DNA from: a virus
UHGV virus genome: UHGV-0119078
Reading direction: 5' to 3' (one strand)
DNA: 10,730 nucleotides
Below are positions 1-10,730 of the stretch, piece by piece. The notes beneath the pieces are model-generated. The model did no database searches. It was not told the DNA's origin and saw only the letters and a list, made by a program, of their open reading frames with translations. The stretch's first letter is position 1. The number at the start of each line of letters is the position of its first letter. A program made the position numbers and the translations under genes.

Positions 1-42
1 TAAAATCGAGACCTGGTTTTTCTACTGAAATGATTATGACTT

Positions 43-55
43 CAATGACCCTTGA
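43..55. repeat. Left copy of 13-bp perfect direct repeat CAATGACCCTTGA (candidate attL core)
   Basis: Identical 13-mer at 43..55 and 10676..10688; flanks differ immediately outside the repeat; right copy lies about 90 bp from the start of the large serine recombinase gene. Confidence 0.45.
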
Positions 56-110
56 ATGAAGTCTATTCGGTTTTCTAAGAGACCTGTTAATTACAGGACA
101 ATATCAGGTG

Positions 111-135
111 TAGTTGGGCTTGTTCCAACCCCTAT
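111..135. repeat. Left copy of 25-bp direct repeat TAGTTGGGCTTGT(T/A)CCAACCCCTAT
   Basis: 24/25 identity with 2914..2938; contains dyad GTTGG-N7-CCAAC. Confidence 0.6.
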
Positions 136-312
136 GACTATGCAATTTAACGGTATTTTTCCAAGTATCTAAGCAGTTTTACACAGATTCTATGCAGTAT
201 CGGTATAGTCCCTTTTTAGCATAACTTATTGAAATATATAAAGAATCTTTGAAGTCTCTTTTCAGGGTAAACTGTATCGTGTTAGTCGTCCCTCTCTCGA
301 CTCCTAGAAAAG

Positions 313-345
313 TGCTATATACAGGGCTATATAACGCTATCTATG
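313..345. promoter_or_regulatory. Three iterated GCTATATA/GCTATCTA motifs at about 10-12 bp spacing, downstream of the small recombinase gene
   Basis: GCTATATA at 314..321 and 326..333, GCTATCTA at 336..343; reverse complement of the TATAGC motifs found upstream of the recombinase gene (1097..1200). Confidence 0.3.
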
Positions 346-462
346 CAGTTGGTCACACAGAATAACTATCAAGCTGCTTAACAGTTTCTTACGTGAAAGT
401 TATTTCTGAGGGTGGGTAAGTGTTCAGGAGATTTTGCGTAGGACACGCTTAGAGAGTGGATA

Positions 463-488
463 CAAAAAAGCCCCCATGAAGGAGGCTA
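463..488 (-). terminator. Rho-independent terminator candidate for the small serine recombinase gene
   Basis: On the minus strand: stem AGCCUCC / GGGGGCU (7 bp, one G-U pair), loop UUCAU, followed by U6 (plus-strand A6 at 464..469). Confidence 0.45.
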
Positions 489-513
489 TGAAGATGCTAC
501 TAAGTTTTTTTTT

Positions 514-1089
514 TTACAGTGTCTTTGTCCAGTGACGGCTAACCGTTCTTACAGAGAGATTCAGAAGCTTTGCAACCTGACTTTGTGACAATCCCTTTGC
601 CTTATGCTCTAAAACGGCCTCTGTAGTGTTCACAGCTACAGGACGACCCAACACCTTACCTTGTGCTTTAACACGCTGTAGACCCTGCTTAGTACGCTCT
701 CTGATGCGGTTACGTTCGAACTCTGCAAAAGCCCCGAACATTTGAAGCATCATTCTACCTTCTGGCTTGGATAAGTCCTGTATGGGCAAGTCTAAGCAAA
801 TTAGCTTAATCCCTTTTGCAATGAGCATATCAACCGTTTTCTGTAGGTCGATACAATCACGTCCTAAACGGTCAAGCTTGAGAACCACCAGCGTATCACC
901 AGCCTCTAGTTTATGTGTGACCAAGTTAGAGAACTCTTTACGCTCCATAGCAGCCACTGAACCGGATACTACTTCTTCTATGATTCGTGTCTTAGGGATT
1001 GTGTAACCTGCATTCTTGATGGCTTCAATCTGGTTCTCATTGGTGGAGTCATCAACTGATACACGACAGTAAGCAAAGATGCGTGACAT
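514..1089 (-). CDS. Small serine recombinase, resolvase/invertase family (Hin/Gin/TnpR-like)
   Basis: 191-aa ORF; N-terminal catalytic block YCRVS, conserved GDTLVVLKLDRLGRD and ERTKQGLQRVKAQGKVLGRP blocks closely resembling Hin/Gin and Tn3-type resolvases; C-terminal HTH-like region; SD-like AAGGGA upstream of the ATG. Confidence 0.85.
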   Translation of the reverse strand: MSRIFAYCRVSVDDSTNENQIEAIKNAGYTIPKTRIIEEVVSGSVAAMERKEFSNLVTHKLEAGDTLVVLKLDRLGRDCIDLQKTVDMLIAKGIKLICLDLPIQDLSKPEGRMMLQMFGAFAEFERNRIRERTKQGLQRVKAQGKVLGRPVAVNTTEAVLEHKAKGLSQSQVAKLLNLSVRTVSRHWTKTL

Positions 1090-1096
1090 GTTCTAT

Positions 1097-1200
1097 CCCT
1101 TCTATATAGCCAACAAAGGCCTGTCTTGCTTGTCTATAGCCATTAAATCAATTATCACAATTGTTGTCTATAGCTACAGCTACCTTTTTATATAGACACT
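1097..1200. promoter_or_regulatory. Cluster of TGTCTATAGC-type motifs in both orientations immediately upstream of the small recombinase gene (candidate res-like/accessory binding region and promoter)
   Basis: TCTATATAGCC 1101..1111, TGTCTATAGCC 1131..1141, TGTCTATAGCT 1165..1175, inverted TATATAGACA 1190..1199; 1165..1199 forms an imperfect 35-bp palindrome (TGTCTATA ... TATAGACA). Confidence 0.4.
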
Positions 1201-1544
1201 TAACGGGCGTTTGTTGTCATGTGTATTTATACAGTTAAAGACCTCGATAGATGCCTTTATAGCAACTCACAGAGAAAGTCAATGATATTTGGCTTTTTTG
1301 CAAAGGGGGTCACATAGCTGGTGTGACGGGTACTTAGCAGACATACAGATATTTTCGAAGATTCGGGGAAGATGAGATTCAAAGAGGGCTAGTCATTTTT
1401 TATAAAAATTTTCAGAGACTGAAAAGTTACTGTACAGATTTTGCACAATCTTACCAAGCCTCATAGTTGATTCGATTAGAAGCTAATCTCATAGAAAGCT
1501 CTGTAGCGAGTTTTAACCCCATTTTTAGGGGTAACCTATAGGGA

Positions 1545-1641
1545 TGTACTAACCACCTTAAAATAAAGGGGTAAAATCGCTTAGAATGCGTTACAGAGCG
1601 TCTGAGAAGCCATATTCACAGATTTTACTAAAGTCTCAGAC
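1545..1641. repeat. Left arm of about 97-bp imperfect inverted repeat (pairs with 4417..4513)
   Basis: Ungapped alignment of 1545..1641 with the reverse complement of 4417..4513 gives about 69% identity, with core blocks 27/31 (1581..1611 vs 4447..4477) and 12/13 (1629..1641 vs 4417..4429); both arms begin with TGT at the outer end. Confidence 0.7.
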
Positions 1642-1661
1642 TTCTAAGTGGTCTTTTTAAC

Positions 1662-1710
1662 AGGAGGGGTTCCCCTATGGTCACATATCCCCTCTCTCTC
1701 CCGCTTAGTG
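1662..1710 (+). repeat. Copy 1 of a three-member motif family: G-rich hairpin followed by TCTCCCGCTTAGTG
   Basis: AGGAGGGGTTCCCCT hairpin then GGTCACAT then TCTCCCGCTTAGTG (1697..1710, identical 14-mer also at 2371..2384). Confidence 0.5.
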
Positions 1711-2114
1711 TCCCTTGATAGTATCTAGAGAGTATGCCTGTAAAACTTCTATATCAGGTCAGATTTAGAGGGTTTGATAGAATCTTCAAAGGTACTTGAC
1801 AGATAACTATGAAGTTGCCAGGAAGGAGTGTTTAACGGGAGGAAAGATACGATATAACCCGAAGGGGAGAGTATCATCTTAACAATTATCTTAAGAATAA
1901 AAACTGAAAAATTCTTAACAGAACTACCAAGAGGGAGCGATAAGACCAGAGGTAGTGACCTTGTTAAATAGGCCGTTTCAAAGCTCTTAAGAGTTTGTTA
2001 AGTAATGGCTATGTGAACAATCTTACCACTTTGTCAATGCTTTTGTCTTTGACCTAAATCAATAAAATGTATCGTTTGATGCACTTTTAAACAAAATAGC
2101 TAAAAAATCTTTTT

Positions 2115-2163
2115 AGAGGGGCGCTTCGCTTGGGGTCACTATGTTCTTTCTCTCCCGTTAAGA
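2115..2163 (+). repeat. Copy 2 (divergent) of the G-rich hairpin / TCTCTCCCG motif family
   Basis: AGAGGGGCGCTTCGCTTGGGGTCACT ... TTTCTCTCCCGTTAAG; shares GGGGTCAC and TCTCTCCCG with the copies at 1662 and 2338. Confidence 0.4.
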
Positions 2164-2337
2164 GGGAAGTTACAGGGACATTTCAAAGCCCTGATAAGGT
2201 AAGCCCGATGATAACAGAAACAGAGGGCAAAACCACTTATCAACACTGTGAACGAATAACGTAAAGGGCTGGTTAAGAAGGTCGGTTTAGGGATTGGTAG
2301 ATGATTCGGATGAAGCATCCTCATAACAATACCAATT

Positions 2338-2384
2338 AGAAGGGAGCTTCCCTTTCTTGGGTGTCGCTCTTCTCCCGCTTAGTG
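2338..2384 (+). repeat. Copy 3 of the G-rich hairpin / TCTCCCGCTTAGTG motif family
   Basis: AGAAGGGAGCTTCCCTTTC hairpin then TCTTCTCCCGCTTAGTG; 14-mer 2371..2384 identical to 1697..1710. Confidence 0.5.
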
Positions 2385-2413
2385 GATTGATTAAGAAGAC
2401 CTCTGAAGTTTCT

Positions 2414-2584
2414 CTGTGAAGGTGCTGGACAGCCTTATATATGGCTAATTACAACTTATTGAAAAATAAGAACTTTTAGAAGTTACTGTTAAGGTTACGG
2501 AGTTAACTGTGAAGAGACTTGTCAGTTCTCTATATATGGCTAATTACAACTTATTGAAAAATAAGAACTTTTAGAAGTTACTGT
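2414..2584 (+). repeat. Tandem direct repeat, two units (2414..2489 and 2507..2584) with a perfect 54-bp core (2436..2489 = 2531..2584)
   Basis: Core TATATATGGCTAATTACAACTTATTGAAAAATAAGAACTTTTAGAAGTTACTGT is identical in both units; each core holds a 6-bp stem with GAAA tetraloop (CTTATT-GAAA-AATAAG) and an adjacent 5-bp hairpin (AACTT-TTAG-AAGTT); units share CTGTGAAG upstream with a divergent linker. Confidence 0.75.
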
Positions 2585-2684
2585 CAGAGAGGTGAATACT
2601 TGATAGATACAGCTTTCCGGTTCTGTCAAGAGGTTTCACTACCCACCAGCTAAAAATATTTCAGAGGCGGGAGTGATGGGGGGG

Positions 2685-2861
2685 TTAGGACGGGTCTTTG
2701 TGGTCATTATCCTTAAGGTCAAGCGTCCATGTACGACCGAACAGTTTAAAGACAACAAGCACTCTGACGAGGACGTAGCGGAGTAACAGACCTGCAATCA
2801 GCCCGATACCTCCACCAGCCCATACATCAGGTGACCCCAGTTCAGGAGGGAGATTTACCAT
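2685..2861 (-). CDS. Candidate small membrane protein (58 aa from internal ATG with AGGAAA SD-like sequence; 70 aa if started at 2897)
   Basis: ORF encodes one strongly hydrophobic segment (WAGGGIGLIAGLLLRYVLVRVLVVFKLF) followed by a charged tail; locally GC-richer than surroundings. No recognisable family; could be spurious. Confidence 0.3.
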   Translation of the reverse strand: MVNLPPELGSPDVWAGGGIGLIAGLLLRYVLVRVLVVFKLFGRTWTLDLKDNDHKDPS

Positions 2862-2913
2862 TAAATTTCCTGTGTGCAATGCAATACCATGTGACATACA
2901 TAGTTGATTCGGT

Positions 2914-2938
2914 TAGTTGGGCTTGTACCAACCCCTAT
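2914..2938. repeat. Right copy of 25-bp direct repeat TAGTTGGGCTTGT(T/A)CCAACCCCTAT
   Basis: 24/25 identity with 111..135; lies just upstream (on the minus strand) of the small membrane ORF and about 90 bp upstream of the 3026 promoter. Confidence 0.6.
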
Positions 2939-3025
2939 CGAATAAACCTCATAGCCACGCCTTTATATTTTACTCTCCCCATAGAACCATTATACCACAG
3001 ATGTTAATAAAATGTTAAAAAATAC

Positions 3026-3054
3026 TTGACATTAGTCTTTGAAAATGCTAGTAT
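3026..3054 (+). promoter_or_regulatory. Sigma70/SigA-type promoter for the 3106..4417 operon
   Basis: Consensus -35 TTGACA (3026..3031), 17-bp spacer, extended -10 TGcTAGTAT (3046..3054), followed by ATTGTATATATA element shared with the 4553 promoter. Confidence 0.55.
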
Positions 3055-3105
3055 TGTATATATAAGTTAACAGAATAATAACATCTTATGAGGGTCGGAA
3101 CATGA

Positions 3106-3663
3106 ATGAGAGACGCAGAATTTAGAGCGATGCTTCAGGCATCGAGACAACGTAACAAGCACAACTCCTACGCTTACACAAACTCCCCCACCAGCCACGA
3201 ATTACCCAAGTTTACCAAGAAAGAACGCAAAGGCATTGACGAAGTAATTCGGGCAATTACACCGAGGAACCGTTACATGCCAACACGCAAAACAACAAAG
3301 AACAGCATCAAGAATTATCTGGCTAGCTTTGACAGCTACGCGCAACTACCGAGCAAGCTTGATGATATTTTTATTGGATTTTGCAGAAGCGAGGGTCACC
3401 AGAAATACAACCAGAAGGTTTTTTATTTACTGCGAAGTCTTGATGAAATTAACTCAGCCACCGTGACAAATCATCTTCAGCGTCAAGCAACCAGACTTAG
3501 CCATGAATTACCAAGCGATAAATATTGCGCTTTGCTTGCTGTAATGTGCGCAAAGTTAATTGGTGTTGTTGAGCATCATATTGCCGTTGGAAATATTGAG
3601 CCAATGGAAAACGAGCAACCAGATTTCGAGTTTGACCCGTATTTAGTTACAGAGGAATTTTAA
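3106..3663 (+). CDS. Hypothetical protein (185 aa), basic N-terminus, acidic C-terminal tail
   Basis: Intact ORF directly downstream of the predicted promoter; GAGGG SD-like sequence upstream; stop codon directly abuts the next ATG (TAAATG). No family recognised. Confidence 0.65.
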   Translation: MRDAEFRAMLQASRQRNKHNSYAYTNSPTSHELPKFTKKERKGIDEVIRAITPRNRYMPTRKTTKNSIKNYLASFDSYAQLPSKLDDIFIGFCRSEGHQKYNQKVFYLLRSLDEINSATVTNHLQRQATRLSHELPSDKYCALLAVMCAKLIGVVEHHIAVGNIEPMENEQPDFEFDPYLVTEEF

Positions 3664-3944: not shown

Positions 3945-4217
3945 ATGAAGCAATGGCGAGATGATATTAAACGGTTCTTTGCAACTTACTTCATGATTAA
4001 TTACGAAACAGGAATGCTTGAATGGATTGATGGTGGAGAGGTTAAGACAAGAGATGACGCTTACGGTAATCCAATGATTCGTTATGGCACTCGTGATTAT
4101 TATGTGAAATATGTCATCTGGTTTTTGCATCATGAAGTTCAGGCAACTAAAAAAATTATCTTCAGGGATGGTAATAAAAGAAATTGCCACCCAAACAATT
4201 TACTACTGGAGATTTAA
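3945..4217 (+). CDS. HNH-like small protein (HNH_3-type fold), probably degenerate at the catalytic histidine
   Basis: 90-aa ORF with NYETGMLEW (matches the Y-x-ETG-x-x-x-W N-terminal signature of phage HNH_3 proteins) and a C-terminal IIFRDGNKRNCHPNNLLL block aligning with the IDHxDGN...N..NL HNH core, but with Phe/Arg where the catalytic His is expected. Confidence 0.5.
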   Translation: MKQWRDDIKRFFATYFMINYETGMLEWIDGGEVKTRDDAYGNPMIRYGTRDYYVKYVIWFLHHEVQATKKIIFRDGNKRNCHPNNLLLEI

Positions 4218-4417
4218 TGCTATGTATTAAATTCGAATATTTGACAGATAAAATGATTAAGCATGTATCAGACCTGCTCATCAAAGAAGGTGGTTTCGGT
4301 GATGCTTGCAATCCAAAAGATATCTTCATTCATGCCACCAGCCCAAACGCAACACTAAAGACAGCAGTTACAGCGGAATGGTTTGAACGAAATAAAGCGG
4401 AATTAGGTTATTGGTAG
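4217..4417 (+). CDS. Hypothetical small protein (66 aa), translationally coupled to the HNH-like gene
   Basis: ATG at 4217 overlaps the upstream TAA stop (TAATG); GGAG 5 nt upstream. The longer ORF-track start at 4184 lacks an RBS. No family recognised. Confidence 0.45.
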   Translation: MLCIKFEYLTDKMIKHVSDLLIKEGGFGDACNPKDIFIHATSPNATLKTAVTAEWFERNKAELGYW

Positions 4418-4513
4418 TCCGAGACTTTAAGAGAAATTAGAAAAACAGCTTCTCAGACGCTCTCAATCGCATTCTAACGCAAAAAACTACCTTATTTTAG
4501 GGTGGGTAACACA
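4417..4513. repeat. Right arm of about 97-bp imperfect inverted repeat (pairs with 1545..1641)
   Basis: See left arm; this arm starts at the stop codon of the 4217..4417 ORF and ends about 40 bp before the 4553 promoter. Confidence 0.7.
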
Positions 4514-4552
4514 GTAAATAAGAATTGATGTTACCAATCTGTTAAAAAGCTG

Positions 4553-4581
4553 TTGACAAATAACCTTAAGCATGACATAAT
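4553..4581 (+). promoter_or_regulatory. Sigma70/SigA-type promoter for the 4923..9034 gene set
   Basis: Consensus -35 TTGACA (4553..4558), 17-bp spacer, extended -10 TGaCATAAT (4573..4581), followed by ATTGTATATATA (4580..4591), identical to the element at 3053..3064. Confidence 0.5.
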
Positions 4582-4922: not shown

Positions 4923-5633
4923 ATGACAAACGATATTTACATTAACGGTAAAAAGATTGATAGCTTCGGTGACTGGTCGCCACAGACTGAACATCCAGCT
5001 ATCACTATTCAGCGTAAAGAACACGATGAAAGAATTAAGCTTGAGCAATCGTTAAAGATGTCACCAAAGGTAATTTCCTTTGTGTCTCCTGAGCCTCAAG
5101 AAATGCCAGATATCTGCAAAAGTGAAGCACTATTTAATCTTGAGCGTGAATACTACCCACAGTTAAAAGAACAGCGTATTCGACTTGATGACGCTTACAG
5201 CAAAGTTACCCTGATGCAATCAGCTATTGAGCCATCAGAATTTGAGATTCAGGATGAATTGTCACAGAAACCATTTGTCTATTACCAATATGAAGACAAT
5301 GATGGTTTTGGTACTTTTCCTGAGAATATCCCAGACGTGATTAATAATCTTTCTGACGGATATCGAATTGTGAAGATGATTGGAGCTTCAAGAGGTGCTG
5401 GTCAGTTTATTTACATGACCAATAAGAGCGATGAAGAACTCCGTGAAATTGCCAGACAGAACATCTTAGCATCACGTAACAAGCAACTTGAAAATGTTAA
5501 GTTGTGTCTCTTAAGAGAGCTTCAGGCTATGAAAGACCTTATTTCTGCATATGAAACGCAGAAGAAGGTTGCTATGCAGGCTGATATTGAGCAGTTAGTG
5601 AAGATTTCTCAGAAATACGCAAAGGCACTTTGA
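4923..5633 (+). CDS. Hypothetical protein (236 aa) with predicted C-terminal coiled coil
   Basis: Intact ORF with AGAGGAA SD-like sequence; no family recognised by inspection. Confidence 0.65.
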   Translation: MTNDIYINGKKIDSFGDWSPQTEHPAITIQRKEHDERIKLEQSLKMSPKVISFVSPEPQEMPDICKSEALFNLEREYYPQLKEQRIRLDDAYSKVTLMQSAIEPSEFEIQDELSQKPFVYYQYEDNDGFGTFPENIPDVINNLSDGYRIVKMIGASRGAGQFIYMTNKSDEELREIARQNILASRNKQLENVKLCLLRELQAMKDLISAYETQKKVAMQADIEQLVKISQKYAKAL

Positions 5634-5980: not shown

Positions 5981-8107
5981 ATGAGCAAATTCACAGTTGA
6001 TAGTTTTATCGTTGAGTTAGGCTTCAGCGAGAACGTTATTAAGGGCTTGCAAAGAGTTGAAAAAGCAGCTTTGCAGTCAGCACAAAGAATTGAAAAGAAC
6101 CTAAATAAAGGCTTCAAGATTAATACAAAGCAACTTGACAGTAATCTGACAAGTTCTTTGAAGTCAATGGAAGGGAAAATTAATAAGACCTTTGACCGTC
6201 TGGAAGCTAGAGCAAGAAATACTAGAGTTTTCCGTTTCACAAGTCAGGTTAATGACGTTATTAATCCGCCAAAACAACCGAGGCCAAGAAGAGTTACTAG
6301 TGACCGAGCTATTACAGCGGCTTATTCAGCGAATATGACTAAGCTGAAAGGTCTTAACCCAATTGTCGAGAAATACATTAAGAGTCAGTTTTACGCATTA
6401 AGTAGTAAAGCTGGTCAGATGGATAACACCAAGTTTAATGAAGCCCTTGCTAAACTAAATTCAAGTGTACGAGAAGCAATTGCTAAAGCCAGAGGTCATA
6501 CATCCACCAGCATTAACGGTGACAGAGCAGCTAATAGTCTTGATAGTTTGAGTTCAGCAGCAGTTAAAACAGCAGGTGCATTTATCAGCTTTCAGGCTGT
6601 ACTATCCGCTTATCAGAAGATTATGGAAGTTGGCCTTCAACGTGCATCATCGGAAAGAAGTATTGATTTCGTATTCGGTGACCAAAGTACACAGGTCAAA
6701 AAGTTCATTCAAGATTTAACTCAAATTACTGGTATGGACACAACCGAAACACAAGCACAGTTTGCTTCATTTGGTGCATCTGCAAAAAATACGATGGGTC
6801 TTGAAGGCTCAGAGGAATTATTTAAAAACTTAACTGGATATGCCCGTTTAATGGGTCGTTCAGATGAGCAGATTCAAAGAGCATTAACCGCAGTATCGCA
6901 GATGGCTTCTAAGGGTCAGGTGATGGCTGAAGAGCTTAAGGGGCAACTATCTGAAGCTTTACCGGGTGCTACTCAGGCATTTGCAAAGGCTTTAGGTCTG
7001 ACTGAAAAACAGCTTTTCGATAAGATGAAAAATGGTGATGTTAAAGCCTCTGATGCACTCCCTAAGTTTGCTAAAGAACTTGGTTCACAGATTAATTCCA
7101 GAGGTGGCTGGAAAGCTATTCAGGACTCTACGCAGACGATGTTAGGGAACTTAAAGAATACTTGGAACAACTCACTAACGGATATCTTCAGAGGTTCTGA
7201 AAATGGTCTTCAAGATTTCACAAGAAGCTTAACCAATCTTTTAAATAGTCTTGGTGGGAGTGGTAAAACATTAGGTGAAAGTCTTGGTAATCTCATGACT
7301 TCTATGTCACACGGTGTCGATAACCTGACTGATATTAGTTACAGGGTAAGGGCGTTCTTTGACGAGGTGACATTGGCTTATCGTTCACTAAATGACACTC
7401 AGAAAAAAATTGTTGATGGCCTATCTGATGGGTTAATTGATGGTTTGAAGATGCTTGCTGTAGCTGTTACTGCTCAAAAGGCTGCAAATGTAGCTGGAGG
7501 CTTGTTAAACCTTGCAAATGCTGTTACTTCATTCGGTGACGCTGTTAATAAAGCTAAAGCTGGCAAGGCTGGTTCTTCAGGTGGTGCGCTAAATAAAGTT
7601 GGTAGAGTTGTTCTTTATGCTGAGTTGGTGAACTTTGCTCTTGATAATTTAAACCCTGAAGCGGCTAAGAATCCGAACTTACACCAATCAGGTATTGGAA
7701 CAGAGACAAACTTCAACCCTGAATACAAAGGCGATTCATCTAAACCAAACCAAATTAATGATGGATGGGCTAAGATTGGTGGTTCTATCGCTGACTGGTT
7801 TAATGGTGCAGCTAATAAAATTGCTAACTTCCAAGAACCGATGAATAACTTCGTAAATAACACACAATCAACTCCACCAGCTATCGACACGGTTAATAGC
7901 AATGCTCAATTAGCTATGGCTGTATCAGAGTTAGGAAGAAAGGTAGACGCTTTAACAGCAGAAACTAAGAAGCCCTTGTCACTTAATATCAAAGGTGAAG
8001 CAATTGTTAGGCCGGATGAACCATCTTTCTTTATTTTCAATCAATCGGCTAATGACCAGTTCACGCAGGATATGCTCTTAAGTTCAAGCTATCCAGAAGA
8101 AGAATGA
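5981..8107 (+). CDS. Tape-measure-protein-like protein (708 aa)
   Basis: Central block GQVMAEELKGQLSEALPGATQAFAKALGLTEKQLFDKMKNGDVKASDALPKFAKELG resembles the conserved core of phage tail tape measure proteins (recalled from memory, not searched); alpha-helical, Ala/Gly/Ser/Asn-rich, low-complexity C-terminal part; AAGAGGTGA SD. Coding confidence is high; the functional call is moderate. Confidence 0.55.
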   Translation: MSKFTVDSFIVELGFSENVIKGLQRVEKAALQSAQRIEKNLNKGFKINTKQLDSNLTSSLKSMEGKINKTFDRLEARARNTRVFRFTSQVNDVINPPKQPRPRRVTSDRAITAAYSANMTKLKGLNPIVEKYIKSQFYALSSKAGQMDNTKFNEALAKLNSSVREAIAKARGHTSTSINGDRAANSLDSLSSAAVKTAGAFISFQAVLSAYQKIMEVGLQRASSERSIDFVFGDQSTQVKKFIQDLTQITGMDTTETQAQFASFGASAKNTMGLEGSEELFKNLTGYARLMGRSDEQIQRALTAVSQMASKGQVMAEELKGQLSEALPGATQAFAKALGLTEKQLFDKMKNGDVKASDALPKFAKELGSQINSRGGWKAIQDSTQTMLGNLKNTWNNSLTDIFRGSENGLQDFTRSLTNLLNSLGGSGKTLGESLGNLMTSMSHGVDNLTDISYRVRAFFDEVTLAYRSLNDTQKKIVDGLSDGLIDGLKMLAVAVTAQKAANVAGGLLNLANAVTSFGDAVNKAKAGKAGSSGGALNKVGRVVLYAELVNFALDNLNPEAAKNPNLHQSGIGTETNFNPEYKGDSSKPNQINDGWAKIGGSIADWFNGAANKIANFQEPMNNFVNNTQSTPPAIDTVNSNAQLAMAVSELGRKVDALTAETKKPLSLNIKGEAIVRPDEPSFFIFNQSANDQFTQDMLLSSSYPEEE

Positions 8108-8263
8108 TTTAACGGTGTTCTACGTGAATAAAGCAAAGTTAATACCCGCACTGAAAAATAATTTTTACGTAGCTCACGCTTAACAGAGAAAATACTTATA
8201 TATCAAAGGCTTGGTTAAAAATGATTAAAATACACTAAGCCTTTGAAATCAAAGGAGAATTTA

Positions 8264-9034
8264 ATGATTTTTAGCAATCAAATCCGCTACAGTGGCAAAG
8301 ATGGCGTTTACTTCCACTTAAGAGATAATGTAGATGCCTTCTTAACCTTATCAGCAACTGAACAGATGGAATATGACAGCCCTATGATGGTGACAACTCA
8401 GGCTATGCAATCGGGGCAAACTATAACTGATAATGTTCAGAGAGCACCTAAGACCATCTCTATTAGCGGTGTTGTAGTGGTTGATTCGACGGGTTCAGTT
8501 CTATTAACCAGACAGGGGCAACTTGTAGAAACCTTTATTTCTACGGTTGAACAATGGCGAGACCAGAAGCAAATCATCACTATTGTTTGTAAAGATGGAA
8601 TATCTATCACTGATAGTATCATTACTCAGTTTAAAGCGAGTAAAGAGCATACCATTGCTAATGGTCTTCGTATTCAGATGACCTTCCAAGGTGTAGAATT
8701 TCGTTCAATCGTAGGTCAAACTGATATTTCAGCAGCAACTGGAAAGACCGCTACCACGAATGATGGCGGTTCTACCAGTAAAAAGAACACTGGCAACACT
8801 ACAACGAGTCTTGGAAGCCCTATGCTGACCTGTAAAGAGCTTTTTAGCTATTCGGCAAGTGAGTTATCAGATGAAGCGCTAAAAGCCCGTGTAACGTGCT
8901 CTAAGAGCGTTAGCGTTAAAAATGGTGAGAGCACCTTCACAGCCTCAGCTAATGAGCAAGCTTCAAAGGTGCTTAAGTCGGGTAATGCTTTACGGAAGTT
9001 TTCTGTAAATCCGAACAAGAAGGGCACTTATTGA
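8264..9034 (+). CDS. Hypothetical protein (257 aa from ATG 8264), possibly tail-associated given its position after the tape-measure-like gene
   Basis: AAAGGAG SD 6 nt upstream of ATG 8264 (the ORF-track TTG start at 8243 has no RBS); Ser/Thr/Gly-rich central linker. No family recognised. Confidence 0.55.
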
Positions 9035-9066: not shown

Positions 9067-10587
9067 TTACAGTTGATAAGCGTCTATTTCTAGTAGCTCT
9101 TTTTCAGCAATTTCAAATATTGATGTTCCATCATTTAGCGGTAACGGGTTTGTAGGTATGGTGATTTCAGTGTCGTTCTGTAGCGTTACAATTACCGAAT
9201 CCTTACCCAATGTAAGCCCTTTTAGATGTTTGGACAAAATCAACTGACACTCGACACGACCCGCTTTAGTTGTCAGGTCAATATCTTTAAGCTGGGGTAG
9301 TTCCTTATCAGTGAGTGAAGCCTTACGCCTCATGTTATCAATCGTGGTCTGTAGCTCTGTACGCCTCTGGTTCAGTTCCTTAATCTGAATTTTTAGTTCA
9401 TCAATATCATCCATCTCAAGAAGTAGGGCGGTAGCTTTCTTGATTCTGGTTGTGACAATTTCAACCTCATGCTGTAGAGATGCAATCTTCCCCTCTGCTT
9501 CTCCATCATTCCCCACGTCAATCATTCCTAGAAAATTTTCAAGCATCCACTTATCAAACGGTTTACGCTTCAACGGAGGAACATCACAGCGACCATCAAG
9601 ATGGTTATTGCACCGATAAACGCCCTGATACTTATTCTTAGTCCCTGTAGGGTGAACACTAGCCCCGCACTGACACCTAAACAGACCTTTGAAGATGTTA
9701 ATCGTTAATGGATTATCACTTGCAGGTGTACGGCCTATACGGTTCTTACCAAGAATCTCTTGAGCTTTATTGAACGTTGAAGCATCTATAGCGGCTTCGT
9801 AGTAGTTCGGTATAGCGGGGCGGTCATTACGTTGTGATGCTGGTAACGTGCCTATCGTTGTCTCTGACCTTAAGATGGTGCGTACAGAGTGAACACTAAA
9901 CCCGTTAGCATCTTTACGGCGACTAAACGACTTTATACCGTTGCTTTGAAGGTGACGGGCGATGTTATGCAGACTTTCACCACTTAGCAGCAGCTTGAAA
10001 ATCAGTCTTACAGTCTCAGCGTGTTCATTGAGTTTAAAAGTATCGGGGTCAATCCATCCGGGAACCATCTTTGTTAAACGTTGTTCACCAGCAAGGGCAA
10101 GTTTTGCACGTTGCTCCCATTTCTGAGAAACACGGAAAGACTTCTGCTTAGATTCCTGATGCGCTATGTAGGCTTTGACACGCTGGATGATTGAGATTCC
10201 TAAATCATCGGCTAAAGCATCCTTTGTGTAGATAAGACCATCTTGTAGCGTGTGAATCTCTAACCCGTTGCCTAAGATGCGATTCATCAAGGCTTCTGTT
10301 TCAAGGTGTTCTAAGCGGCCTATACGGTCGATACTCTCAACAAGCAAAATCGTACCTTCTGGAAACTCCCCAGACTCAATACGGGCTAACATGTCACCAA
10401 ACTGACCAGTAAGATGCTTACCTTTGTAACCGGATAGACCTTCATCACTGAAAGACGCTACTACTTGAGCATCGCTATTCTTCTTCAGCCACTGCTTGAA
10501 CAGGTCGTTTTGTCGTCTGGTTGAATCTGCACCTTCAGCGCCTTGTATGGCTGATGAGAATCTCAAGTATGTTATTACGGTTCTCAC
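9067..10587 (-). CDS. Large serine recombinase (phage-type serine integrase)
   Basis: 506-aa ORF; N-terminal resolvase-type catalytic domain (YLRFSSAIQ, LLVESIDRIGR), extended recombinase domain, Cys-rich zinc-ribbon-like motif (CQCGASVHP ... YRCNNHLDGRCD) and C-terminal coiled coil (KIQIKELNQRRTELQTTIDNMRRK); start codon appears to be GTG (plus-strand CAC at 10585..10587) with GGAG upstream. Confidence 0.85.
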   Translation of the reverse strand: MRTVITYLRFSSAIQGAEGADSTRRQNDLFKQWLKKNSDAQVVASFSDEGLSGYKGKHLTGQFGDMLARIESGEFPEGTILLVESIDRIGRLEHLETEALMNRILGNGLEIHTLQDGLIYTKDALADDLGISIIQRVKAYIAHQESKQKSFRVSQKWEQRAKLALAGEQRLTKMVPGWIDPDTFKLNEHAETVRLIFKLLLSGESLHNIARHLQSNGIKSFSRRKDANGFSVHSVRTILRSETTIGTLPASQRNDRPAIPNYYEAAIDASTFNKAQEILGKNRIGRTPASDNPLTINIFKGLFRCQCGASVHPTGTKNKYQGVYRCNNHLDGRCDVPPLKRKPFDKWMLENFLGMIDVGNDGEAEGKIASLQHEVEIVTTRIKKATALLLEMDDIDELKIQIKELNQRRTELQTTIDNMRRKASLTDKELPQLKDIDLTTKAGRVECQLILSKHLKGLTLGKDSVIVTLQNDTEITIPTNPLPLNDGTSIFEIAEKELLEIDAYQL

Positions 10588-10675: not shown

Positions 10676-10688
10676 CAATGACCCTTGA
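10676..10688. repeat. Right copy of 13-bp perfect direct repeat CAATGACCCTTGA (candidate attR core)
   Basis: Identical to 43..55; lies about 90 bp outside the integrase start. Confidence 0.45.
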
Positions 10689-10730
10689 TTTACCTCGCCG
10701 CTTCCCCTGGCCGACGTTACTTTCGGTCTG

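Follow-up and report, generated by a model that had tools for sequence, protein, structure and literature searches.

A Tn3-like candidate res site upstream of a small serine recombinase gene on an integrative island of Escherichia coli

The virus genome UHGV-0119078, analyzed here as one stretch of 10,730 bp (the window, to whose full length all coordinates refer), is filled by an integrative island of Escherichia coli that encodes a small serine recombinase at its left end. Both clusters of short motifs flanking the recombinase gene are real and exceed chance, but they are not equivalent, and only the upstream one belongs to the recombinase. This upstream region (1103–1222) is probably the recombinase's own res site, organized like those of Tn3 and γδ, and gene and site would together form a free-standing resolution module. 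The module is part of a distinct branch of resolvases and is neither a component of a Tn3 transposon nor a Hin/Gin switch. Systems of this kind are well known; this one is a further member, whose host element is new. An anonymous “recombinase family protein” thereby becomes a testable resolution system, with coordinates for its putative crossover site, linker, and accessory sites.

An initial annotation of this DNA had proposed either a resolvase with its own res site or a Hin-like cassette that inverts together with the recombinase gene. The first proposal is supported by the Tn3-like geometry of the array, the conservation of site positions across genera, the covariation of the site word with the recognition helix, the conservation of the array within E. 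coli, and the similarity of the protein to known resolvases.

Organization of the upstream array

The four elements reported upstream of the gene are found where they had been placed: TCTATATAGC at 1101–1110 (+), TGTCTATAGC at 1131–1140 (+) and 1165–1174 (+), and TGTCTATATA at 1189–1198 (−). The word TGKCTATA has five exact copies in the 10.7-kb window, counting both strands, all of them within 1105–1198, where 0.78 copies would be expected window-wide and one of 200 shuffles reached five. A looser 10-mer, allowing up to two mismatches, shows a weak window-wide enrichment (18 matches against 10.1 ± 3.2).

As sequence patterns, three elements expected of a res site are present, namely a gene-adjacent site I of 28 bp, a linker of 22 bp, and a site II of 34 bp. 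Putative site I, the crossover site, spans 1193–1220 and reads TAGACA CTTAACG GG CGTTTGT TGTCAT (6 + 7 + 2 + 7 + 6 bp); with 8-bp half-sites it extends over 1191–1222, so that the limits first given for the cluster, 1097–1200, prove too short. By analogy with other serine-recombinase sites, the crossover dinucleotide would be the dyad center at 1206–1207, GG on the plus strand and CC in gene orientation. The pattern AACGNNCGTT matches once in the window, at 1202–1211, and site I is also the best match to TAGACA-N16-TGTCTA. The linker between sites I and II (1171–1192) corresponds to an 18-bp gap between 8-bp half-sites. Putative site II (1137–1170) reads TAGACA-N22-TGGCTA on the minus strand, and it is the only zero-mismatch match to TAGACA-N22-TGKCTA in the window. 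The candidate region for site III (1103–1136), between site II and the start codon, contains TGGCTATA at 1105–1112 (−) plus GACA-type partners. In gene orientation, the E. coli layout is ACATGACA ACAAACG CC CGTTAAG TGTCTATA, 18 bp, TATAGACA N22 TGGCTATA, ... TGGCTATA ... ATG. The palindrome TGTCTATA-N18-TATAGACA described earlier exists at 1165–1198, with a length of 34 bp and not 35 bp, and most likely combines two half-sites on either side of the 22-bp linker, the gene-proximal one of site I and the distal one of site II.

The array is the most conserved DNA of the recombinase module. Across 11 E. coli loci, mean pairwise identity is 1.00 for site I, 0.95 for the whole array, 0.96 for the third of the gene encoding the helix-turn-helix (HTH), and 0.79 for the part encoding the catalytic domain. 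The DNA-binding domain and the sites are both near-invariant in E. coli, and are therefore conserved as a unit.

The possibility that the upstream cluster is a generic promoter feature finds no support in E. coli: a promoter and terminator scan of 1–3200 found no sigma-70 promoter at 1090–1340, and only the terminator of the gene. This intrinsic terminator (469–487, minus strand) is a stem-loop, AGCCTCCTTCATGGGGGCT, followed by TTTTTTG, and is kept in 10 of 11 aligned loci. An Rfam scan of the whole window gave a single sub-threshold match to a miRNA family and no significant match, and a known RNA therefore explains neither motif cluster.

The recombinase protein

The open reading frame (ORF) at 514–1089 (minus strand; start codon CAT at 1087–1089 as read on the plus strand) encodes 191 amino acids with an N-terminal catalytic domain (PF00239, E = 1.8e-37) and weak C-terminal matches to HTH domains at residues 157–190. 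This is the architecture of a small serine recombinase, with a catalytic domain carrying the Ser nucleophile and an Arg/Asp cluster, and a C-terminal HTH. The catalytic residues R9, S11, D73, R74, and R77 are invariant among 14 homologues, and Y7, E125, R128, E131, and R132 are conserved along with them. The best relatives of solved structure are γδ resolvase (E = 1e-24) and Tn3 resolvase (8e-22), followed by Gin (2e-18) and Sin (3.5e-11).

In a phmmer alignment, R3, R35, K60, and E62 coincide with R2, R32, K54, and E56 of γδ, the residues of the regulatory (2–3′, or “R”) interface needed to assemble the Tn3 res synaptosome (PMC9943657). R3, R35, and E62 are invariant in the 14 homologues, and position 60 is K, R, or Q. 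Two alleles occur in E. coli, with catalytic domains (residues 1–140) that are 61–62% identical and DNA-binding domains (141–191) that are 98–100% identical. Both alleles retain the catalytic and R-interface residues, and both have the same res array (window versus L007–L012), which amounts to a domain-level mosaic. Judged from its sequence, the protein is rather likely to be an active small serine recombinase of the resolvase type.

Conservation of the layout across genera

We compared the upstream regions of homologues that are 53–76% identical, from five other genera plus metagenomic or enteric loci and plasmids. The loci belong to Vibrio (L019, L020, L028, and L029), Aeromonas (L023), Shewanella (L027), Kluyvera (L025), and Pluralibacter (L021), and were complemented by two metagenomic or enteric loci (L109 and L112), a 4.1-kb Providencia plasmid (L113), and the 9-kb plasmid pMobC (L114). 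A single-protein scan of species-representative genomes gave five loci, and protein-cluster look-ups and IMG/VR loci were used instead. Site I was placed by its conserved inner arms; an automatic 8-N16-8 inverted-repeat search misplaced it where a half-site is degenerate.

A common layout emerges from this comparison. In gene orientation, it consists of inverted 8-mers 16 bp apart, an 18-bp gap, a second inverted pair 22 bp apart, and one to three further copies, the last ∼15–23 bp before the start codon, with the family word at offsets of about −134 (−), −110 (+), −84 (−), −54 (+), −38 (+), and −23 (+). The copy at −23 is present in every relative, and the proximal region of Vibrio and Aeromonas holds three direct copies. 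The family word is confined to the 110–140 bp upstream of the start codon and, a few scattered single copies aside, is absent from the remaining 8 kb of each locus. The 8-7-2-7-8 unit of site I lies at ∼−134 to −103 from the start codon in Vibrio, Aeromonas, Shewanella, Pluralibacter, L109, L112, and the two small plasmids, and the 8-22-8 unit of site II recurs in Vibrio L019, L028, and L029, Aeromonas L023, Shewanella L027, L109, and L112. The spacings of site I, linker, and site II are identical in nine relatives. The I–II linker has the same length in all close relatives and varies in sequence from genus to genus.

Dyad-symmetric inner arms conserved throughout the family (near AAAAACG/CGTTTTT) are a feature of the site I unit alone. 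Its central dinucleotide differs among relatives (CC, GG, CT, TT, TC, AA, or AC) between conserved flanking arms; by analogy with known sites, symmetric conserved arms around a variable central dinucleotide are the signature expected of a serine-recombinase crossover site.

The layout occurs on islands with serine or tyrosine integrases, on ∼95-kb phage-like contigs, and on the 4.1-kb and 9-kb plasmids. The neighborhoods of the compared loci have nothing else in common, ranging over serine or tyrosine integrases, restriction systems, and plasmid replication genes, and the recombinase is the sole shared candidate for binding the array. The 4.1-kb plasmid, which has three genes, and the 9-kb plasmid each carry one recombinase gene and one array, with no second cluster of the family word, an arrangement that is consistent with the resolution of multimers and offers no partner site for inversion. 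We also considered an obligate pairing of the module with large serine integrases and rejected it, given its occurrence with tyrosine integrases and on plasmids.

The family word changes together with the recognition helix. The helix S(V/I)RTVSRHW pairs with TAGACA/TGTCTA in 14 distinct loci (E. coli, Pluralibacter, and L112), (A/P)TVKRHW with GTATCA/TGATAC in 11 loci, SRAAIQR with CGATAC in about 10 IMG/VR loci, and TRQTIMR with CGTACA in several IMG/VR loci. The GTATCA class includes the enterobacterium Kluyvera and two enterobacterial plasmids, and the word therefore does not simply follow host phylogeny. A rigid, Tn3-like geometry thus appears to be maintained across a broad branch of small serine recombinases while word and recognition helix change in concert, and the resulting classes may represent natural orthogonal resolvase/site pairs and a specificity code to mine.

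Comparison with known recombination systems

The module resembles Tn3 and γδ in protein architecture, in its equivalents of the R-interface residues, and in the position of the array directly upstream of the gene. The res site of Tn3/γδ is 114 bp long and comprises sites I, II, and III. Three measures are identical to those of Tn3: the site I spacer (16 bp between 6-bp motifs), the 22-bp I–II linker, and the 22-bp site II spacer. In Tn3 res, the I–II linker is 22 bp, and the spacers of sites II and I exceed that of site III by 9 bp and 3 bp, respectively (PMC9943657). The module differs from Tn3/γδ in that the protein is only ∼35% identical, the inner arms contain G/C (AAACG) instead of being A/T-only, and site III fits the 25-bp pattern poorly. 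It also lies on an integrative island that has neither of the marks of a Tn3-family transposon, a transposase and ∼38-bp terminal inverted repeats.

The half-site word is a further difference. The γδ word is TGTCYR, and the half-site consensus of Tn3 and γδ is TGTCYNNTA, with TGTC at the outer end. With site I assigned as above, reading the E. coli array from the outside inward gives TAGACA as the outer hexamer, and its TGTC lies on the other strand and points outward. The likeness of the TGTC-containing elements to Tn3 subsites, remarked on in the initial annotation, is therefore superficial, with reversed polarity, and it is best seen as coincidental because relatives carry GATAC- or GTACA-type words in the form of GTATCA, CGATAC, or CGTACA.

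The closest functional analogue, by comparison of architecture, is the Res/res system of SGI1. Both are found on integrative elements, SGI1 being an integrative mobilizable island with a resolvase gene and an upstream, Tn3-like res of three subsites, and the island studied here likewise combines its own integrase with a resolvase gene and a candidate res, as island-borne resolution systems do. The SGI1 res, modeled on that of Tn3, consists of a 28-bp boxI, a 22-bp spacer, a 30-bp boxII, and a 2-bp spacer between boxes II and III (PMC12217951). Restored SGI1 Res/res rapidly removes island multimers after transfer (Veress, Szabo and Kiss 2025, PMC12217951). SGI1 is mobilized by IncA/C conjugative plasmids, whereas the island in the window encodes phage tail proteins together with a large serine integrase and seems to depend on phages.

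The invertases Hin, Gin, Cin, and Pin, which work at hix/gix sites together with a Fis-bound recombinational enhancer, share the small serine recombinase fold, with Gin a clear but weaker homologue (see above), and PHROGs and some source annotations label the family “DNA invertase” or “Pin-like”. Unlike these systems, the module shows no inverted pair of sites and, among hundreds of genomes, no orientation polymorphism, retains the R-interface residues, and has a multi-site array beside the crossover site in place of a bare 26-bp site. Sin and β, which are also resolution systems of small serine recombinases, have an accessory site upstream of the gene and direct-repeat half-sites in the accessory region, as do the proximal copies of the Vibrio members. 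They differ in that Sin is a weaker match, and in that one accessory site there works with a DNA-bending protein, whereas the present array contains two or more inverted-repeat sites spaced as in Tn3 and leaves no evident room for HU or IHF.

Proposed mechanism and alternative explanations

The sequence data show how the array is built, that it is conserved, that its word covaries with the recognition helix, and that the genomes searched lack the inverted form; from this we infer by analogy how the module may bind, cleave, select its substrates, and regulate itself. The HTH would read the outer hexamer TAGACA from the outside inward, and a conserved part of the protein would read the inner arm near AAAACG. 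Recombinase dimers would occupy sites I–III, and two directly repeated res copies on one supercoiled molecule would synapse through R-interface contacts, with the accessory sites wrapping. Strand exchange would take place at the center of site I (1206–1207), only between direct repeats on the same molecule, and would yield deletion or resolution, never inversion. Occupancy of sites II and III would probably also lower transcription of the recombinase gene itself.

Multimer resolution is a classical need of small plasmids. The biological role of the module may be to reduce island multimers or concatemers to monomers once the island has been excised, replicated, or transferred, a role suggested by its close relatives, which are single gene-plus-array modules on 4–9 kb plasmids, and by SGI1, whose Res/res eliminates island multimers after transfer. 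Taken together with SGI1, the module suggests that multimer-forming integrative islands commonly carry a resolvase of their own.

Several points weigh against this interpretation. In E. coli, site I has a degenerate gene-distal half (TGTCAT versus TGTCTA), and the pairing within site III is ambiguous (21, 30, or 34 bp), with AAGACA-N9-TGGCTA or TAGACA-N18-TGGCTA as candidates. The site III elements are also inverted in E. coli, as opposed to the direct copies of Vibrio and Aeromonas. Half-site word and polarity depart from the Tn3 consensus, and neither the window nor the sequences flanking 12 E. coli loci revealed a Tn3-family transposase (a DDE protein of ∼1000 amino acids). There is no consensus sigma-70 promoter in the E. 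coli array, and the proposed autoregulation thus leans on the Vibrio homologue. Each island holds one res copy, which makes the multimer or concatemer substrate hypothetical. In Pluralibacter gergoviae (L021), site I is flipped in place relative to E. coli, with accessory sites and gene collinear; the flip appears as a 22-nt match to 1191–1212, 95% identical and on the opposite strand, ∼110–132 nt upstream of the gene (4001–4570). Finally, the 34-bp palindrome (1165–1198) could be paired differently, as a single dimer site, a reading that we disfavor because its spacer is neither conserved between genera nor symmetric.

It is quite unlikely that the recombinase has instead been domesticated mainly as a transcription factor, with the array serving as an operator bank that represses its own gene and a divergent, ORF-poor control region, and with recombination vestigial. 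The array does lie between the gene and a 1.9-kb ORF-poor region and is the best-conserved DNA of the module, sites II and III of Vibrio L019 enclose a TTGACA-17-TATTAT promoter, the distal half of E. coli site I is degenerate, and Tn3 resolvase is known to repress from res. However, repression and recombination can coexist. Catalytic and R-interface residues are kept in both E. coli alleles and in the 14 aligned homologues, a pure operator would have no use for the dyad site I, whose inner arm is conserved and whose center varies, and the same module resides on 4–9 kb plasmids, where resolution is needed.

A very unlikely explanation is module exchange or cargo capture, in which recombination at site I between elements, or with pseudo-sites, would swap the distal DNA, often defense-related cargo. 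The sequences of Vibrio L019 and L020 agree completely on the gene side, beginning at the inner arm of site I, and diverge wholly on the distal side, where one carries nSTAND/AAA and S8 peptidase genes and the other an unrelated 387-residue protein. Variable cargo also lies beside the module in L025 (DUF4145), in L028 (type I restriction–modification and GmrSD), and in E. coli L006, and the flipped site I of Pluralibacter would fit such events. The single Vibrio pair is anecdotal, however, the cargo of L006 is inserted at the other end of the gene, and accessory sites normally prevent intermolecular events. In the E. coli islands, site I is not a variable junction, because homology runs 220–300 bp past it (to ∼1441–1528) in all loci.

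Downstream repeats and the proposed invertible cassette

The three repeats reported downstream of the gene are present: GCTATATA at 314 and 326 and GCTATCTA at 336, all on the plus strand, with spacings of 12 and 10 bp and, as described, in the orientation opposite to the gene-proximal upstream copies. These GCTATMTA repeats (314–343) account for three of the four matches in the window, where 0.77 would be expected. They share only CTATA with the upstream word; the TG(T/G)C part is absent, and this GACA/TGTC part is retained even in degenerate half-sites. Conservation of the repeats in E. coli (0.86) equals that of both flanks (0.86), and the second and third copies vary between loci encoding identical DNA-binding domains. 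No second, downstream cluster was found in the other genera or plasmids compared. The sole site-I-like match in this region (316–343; 28 bp with three mismatches) lacks the inner arms and is at chance level (8 matches versus 5.9 expected).

The repeats overlap a possible ORF of 31–38 codons (249–365, plus strand), near the end of which in-frame stops occur in 6 of 11 loci. We judge the repeats to lie outside the recombinase system, with a promoter element, a small ORF, or another factor's binding array as candidate identities. Local alignment of the 3′ flank of the gene (56–513) against 1200–3100 on both strands returned only a 25-nt hairpin element above the shuffled score. An apparent inverted similarity between 325–347 and 1249–1270 was not significant and was rejected.

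That the two clusters (313–345 and 1097–1200) are inverted crossover sites, between which the recombinase flips a ∼0.8-kb segment containing its own gene, is extremely improbable. We searched E. coli genomes with two chimeric queries, one joining the left flank to the reverse complement of the 5′ part of the gene and the other joining the reverse complement of its 3′ part to the right flank, which can be covered contiguously only in the inverted state. At a threshold of at least 80% coverage, none of 573 genomes covered the first and none of 364 the second; in the second search, most genomes carry both halves as separate places on opposite strands. A base-by-base inspection of 12 loci showed every one to be collinear with the window. 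A Hin-type switch should show both orientations among hundreds of assemblies, and we therefore reject the cassette. The non-randomness and opposite orientation of the clusters, the “DNA invertase” name given by PHROGs, and the 28-bp match at 316–343 to the outer pattern of site I would speak for inversion. This match is within chance and has no conserved inner arms, however, leaving a single site-I-like sequence in the window where an invertase needs a pair of inverted crossover sites. The downstream repeats are conserved no more than their flanks, vary despite an identical DNA-binding domain, and are missing from the other genera and plasmids compared, and the protein scores higher against resolvases than against Gin.

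The host island

The resolution module is part of a complete ∼10.6-kb integrative island that fills the window, is bounded by 12-bp direct repeats (AATGACCCTTGA, 44–55 and 10678–10689), and is inserted at the start codon of tonB, which the repeat contains. The tonB promoter and the first 11 nt of tonB occupy 1–55, and intact tonB resumes at ∼10680. The insertion has cut off the native tonB promoter from intact tonB; the relocated promoter now reads into the left end of the island and runs antisense to the small recombinase gene. In island order, this gene, which points outward at the left end, is followed by an ORF-poor region (1.9 kb without a long ORF), a few small genes including an HNH endonuclease gene, the genes for a tape-measure protein and then a Dit-like baseplate protein (within 5981–9034), and the gene for a 506-residue large serine recombinase (9067–10587, minus strand), which adjoins the right junction.

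The recombinase module is present in 576 of 5,426 complete E. coli genomes (∼10%). Related islands carrying it are inserted at tonB, ymdF, yecE (DUF72), and mdtG, giving at least four insertion sites. A 4.4-kb minimal island in E. coli 2013C-4225 (L006) consists of cargo (a 245-residue ORF) and the small and large recombinases. The sole genome in the collection that is 100% identical to the window, L001 (NZ_AP027844.1), has at 18785–19753 an IS5 element interrupting the tape-measure gene; the window carries an intact copy.

Virulent Felixounavirus (FelixO1-like) phages encode proteins similar to the tape-measure and Dit-like proteins of the island, and the Dit-like protein is ∼72% identical to proteins of Felixounavirus phages of 86–90 kb. 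A 58-nt palindromic element (2288–2345) is 96–100% identical to a non-coding stretch located 257–361 nt from the starts of Felixounavirus records. A role for this element as a mimic of a Felixounavirus attB or pac site was considered and is weakened, the ∼58-nt element being an insertion polymorphism at the left end of yecE-type islands. The island looks like an undescribed satellite of virulent Felixounavirus phages, in which case the resolvase may act to turn delivered concatemers of satellite DNA into monomers. A literature search, of incomplete coverage, found no published description of the island family or of its res. The island is the larger prize, an element at the tonB start codon with Felixounavirus-like tail genes that could represent a new virulent-phage satellite.

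A broader view, that there is a widespread and undescribed family of Felixounavirus satellites whose monomerization device is the resolvase/res module, is speculative, and we consider it unlikely. The module would then cut circular monomers out of satellite concatemers that arrive in helper-sized capsids, much as Cre/lox does in P1, and monomer excision would let the large serine integrase insert a single copy. The two catalytic alleles could be synapsis-incompatible groups, as are the R interfaces of Tn3 and Bart, and such incompatibility might keep co-resident satellites from recombining with each other.

Further features of the island concern its annotation and its repeats. A 236-residue ORF (4923–5633, plus strand) is labeled “transposase” in several RefSeq records; it matches no Pfam, NCBIfam, or PHROG family, and the label looks unsupported. 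The ORF-poor region contains a perfect 54-nt direct repeat (2436–2489 and 2531–2584, 95 bp start to start), which could be an iteron/origin-like element or a duplicated regulatory RNA. The same stretch holds a diverged tandem duplication (∼1329–1710 versus 1791–2165) at ∼454–485 bp, a spacing shared by several short repeat families. A segment of 93–145 nt (1498–1642) has a ∼70% identical inverted copy after the HNH gene (∼4416–4508), which is found in related islands too. The tandem duplication and the inverted copy may be repeated regulatory or RNA units.

At the left end, ACCTGTTAATTACAGGACAATATCAGGTG (73–101) is conserved in related islands regardless of their chromosomal site, and must therefore be more than the site-specific arm of a single attachment site. 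The 25-nt hairpin-forming element TAGTTGGGCTTGTTCCAACCCCTAT occurs twice in the window (111–135 and 2914–2938); at the left-end position, it is present in some related islands and missing from others, resembling a small insertion polymorphism.

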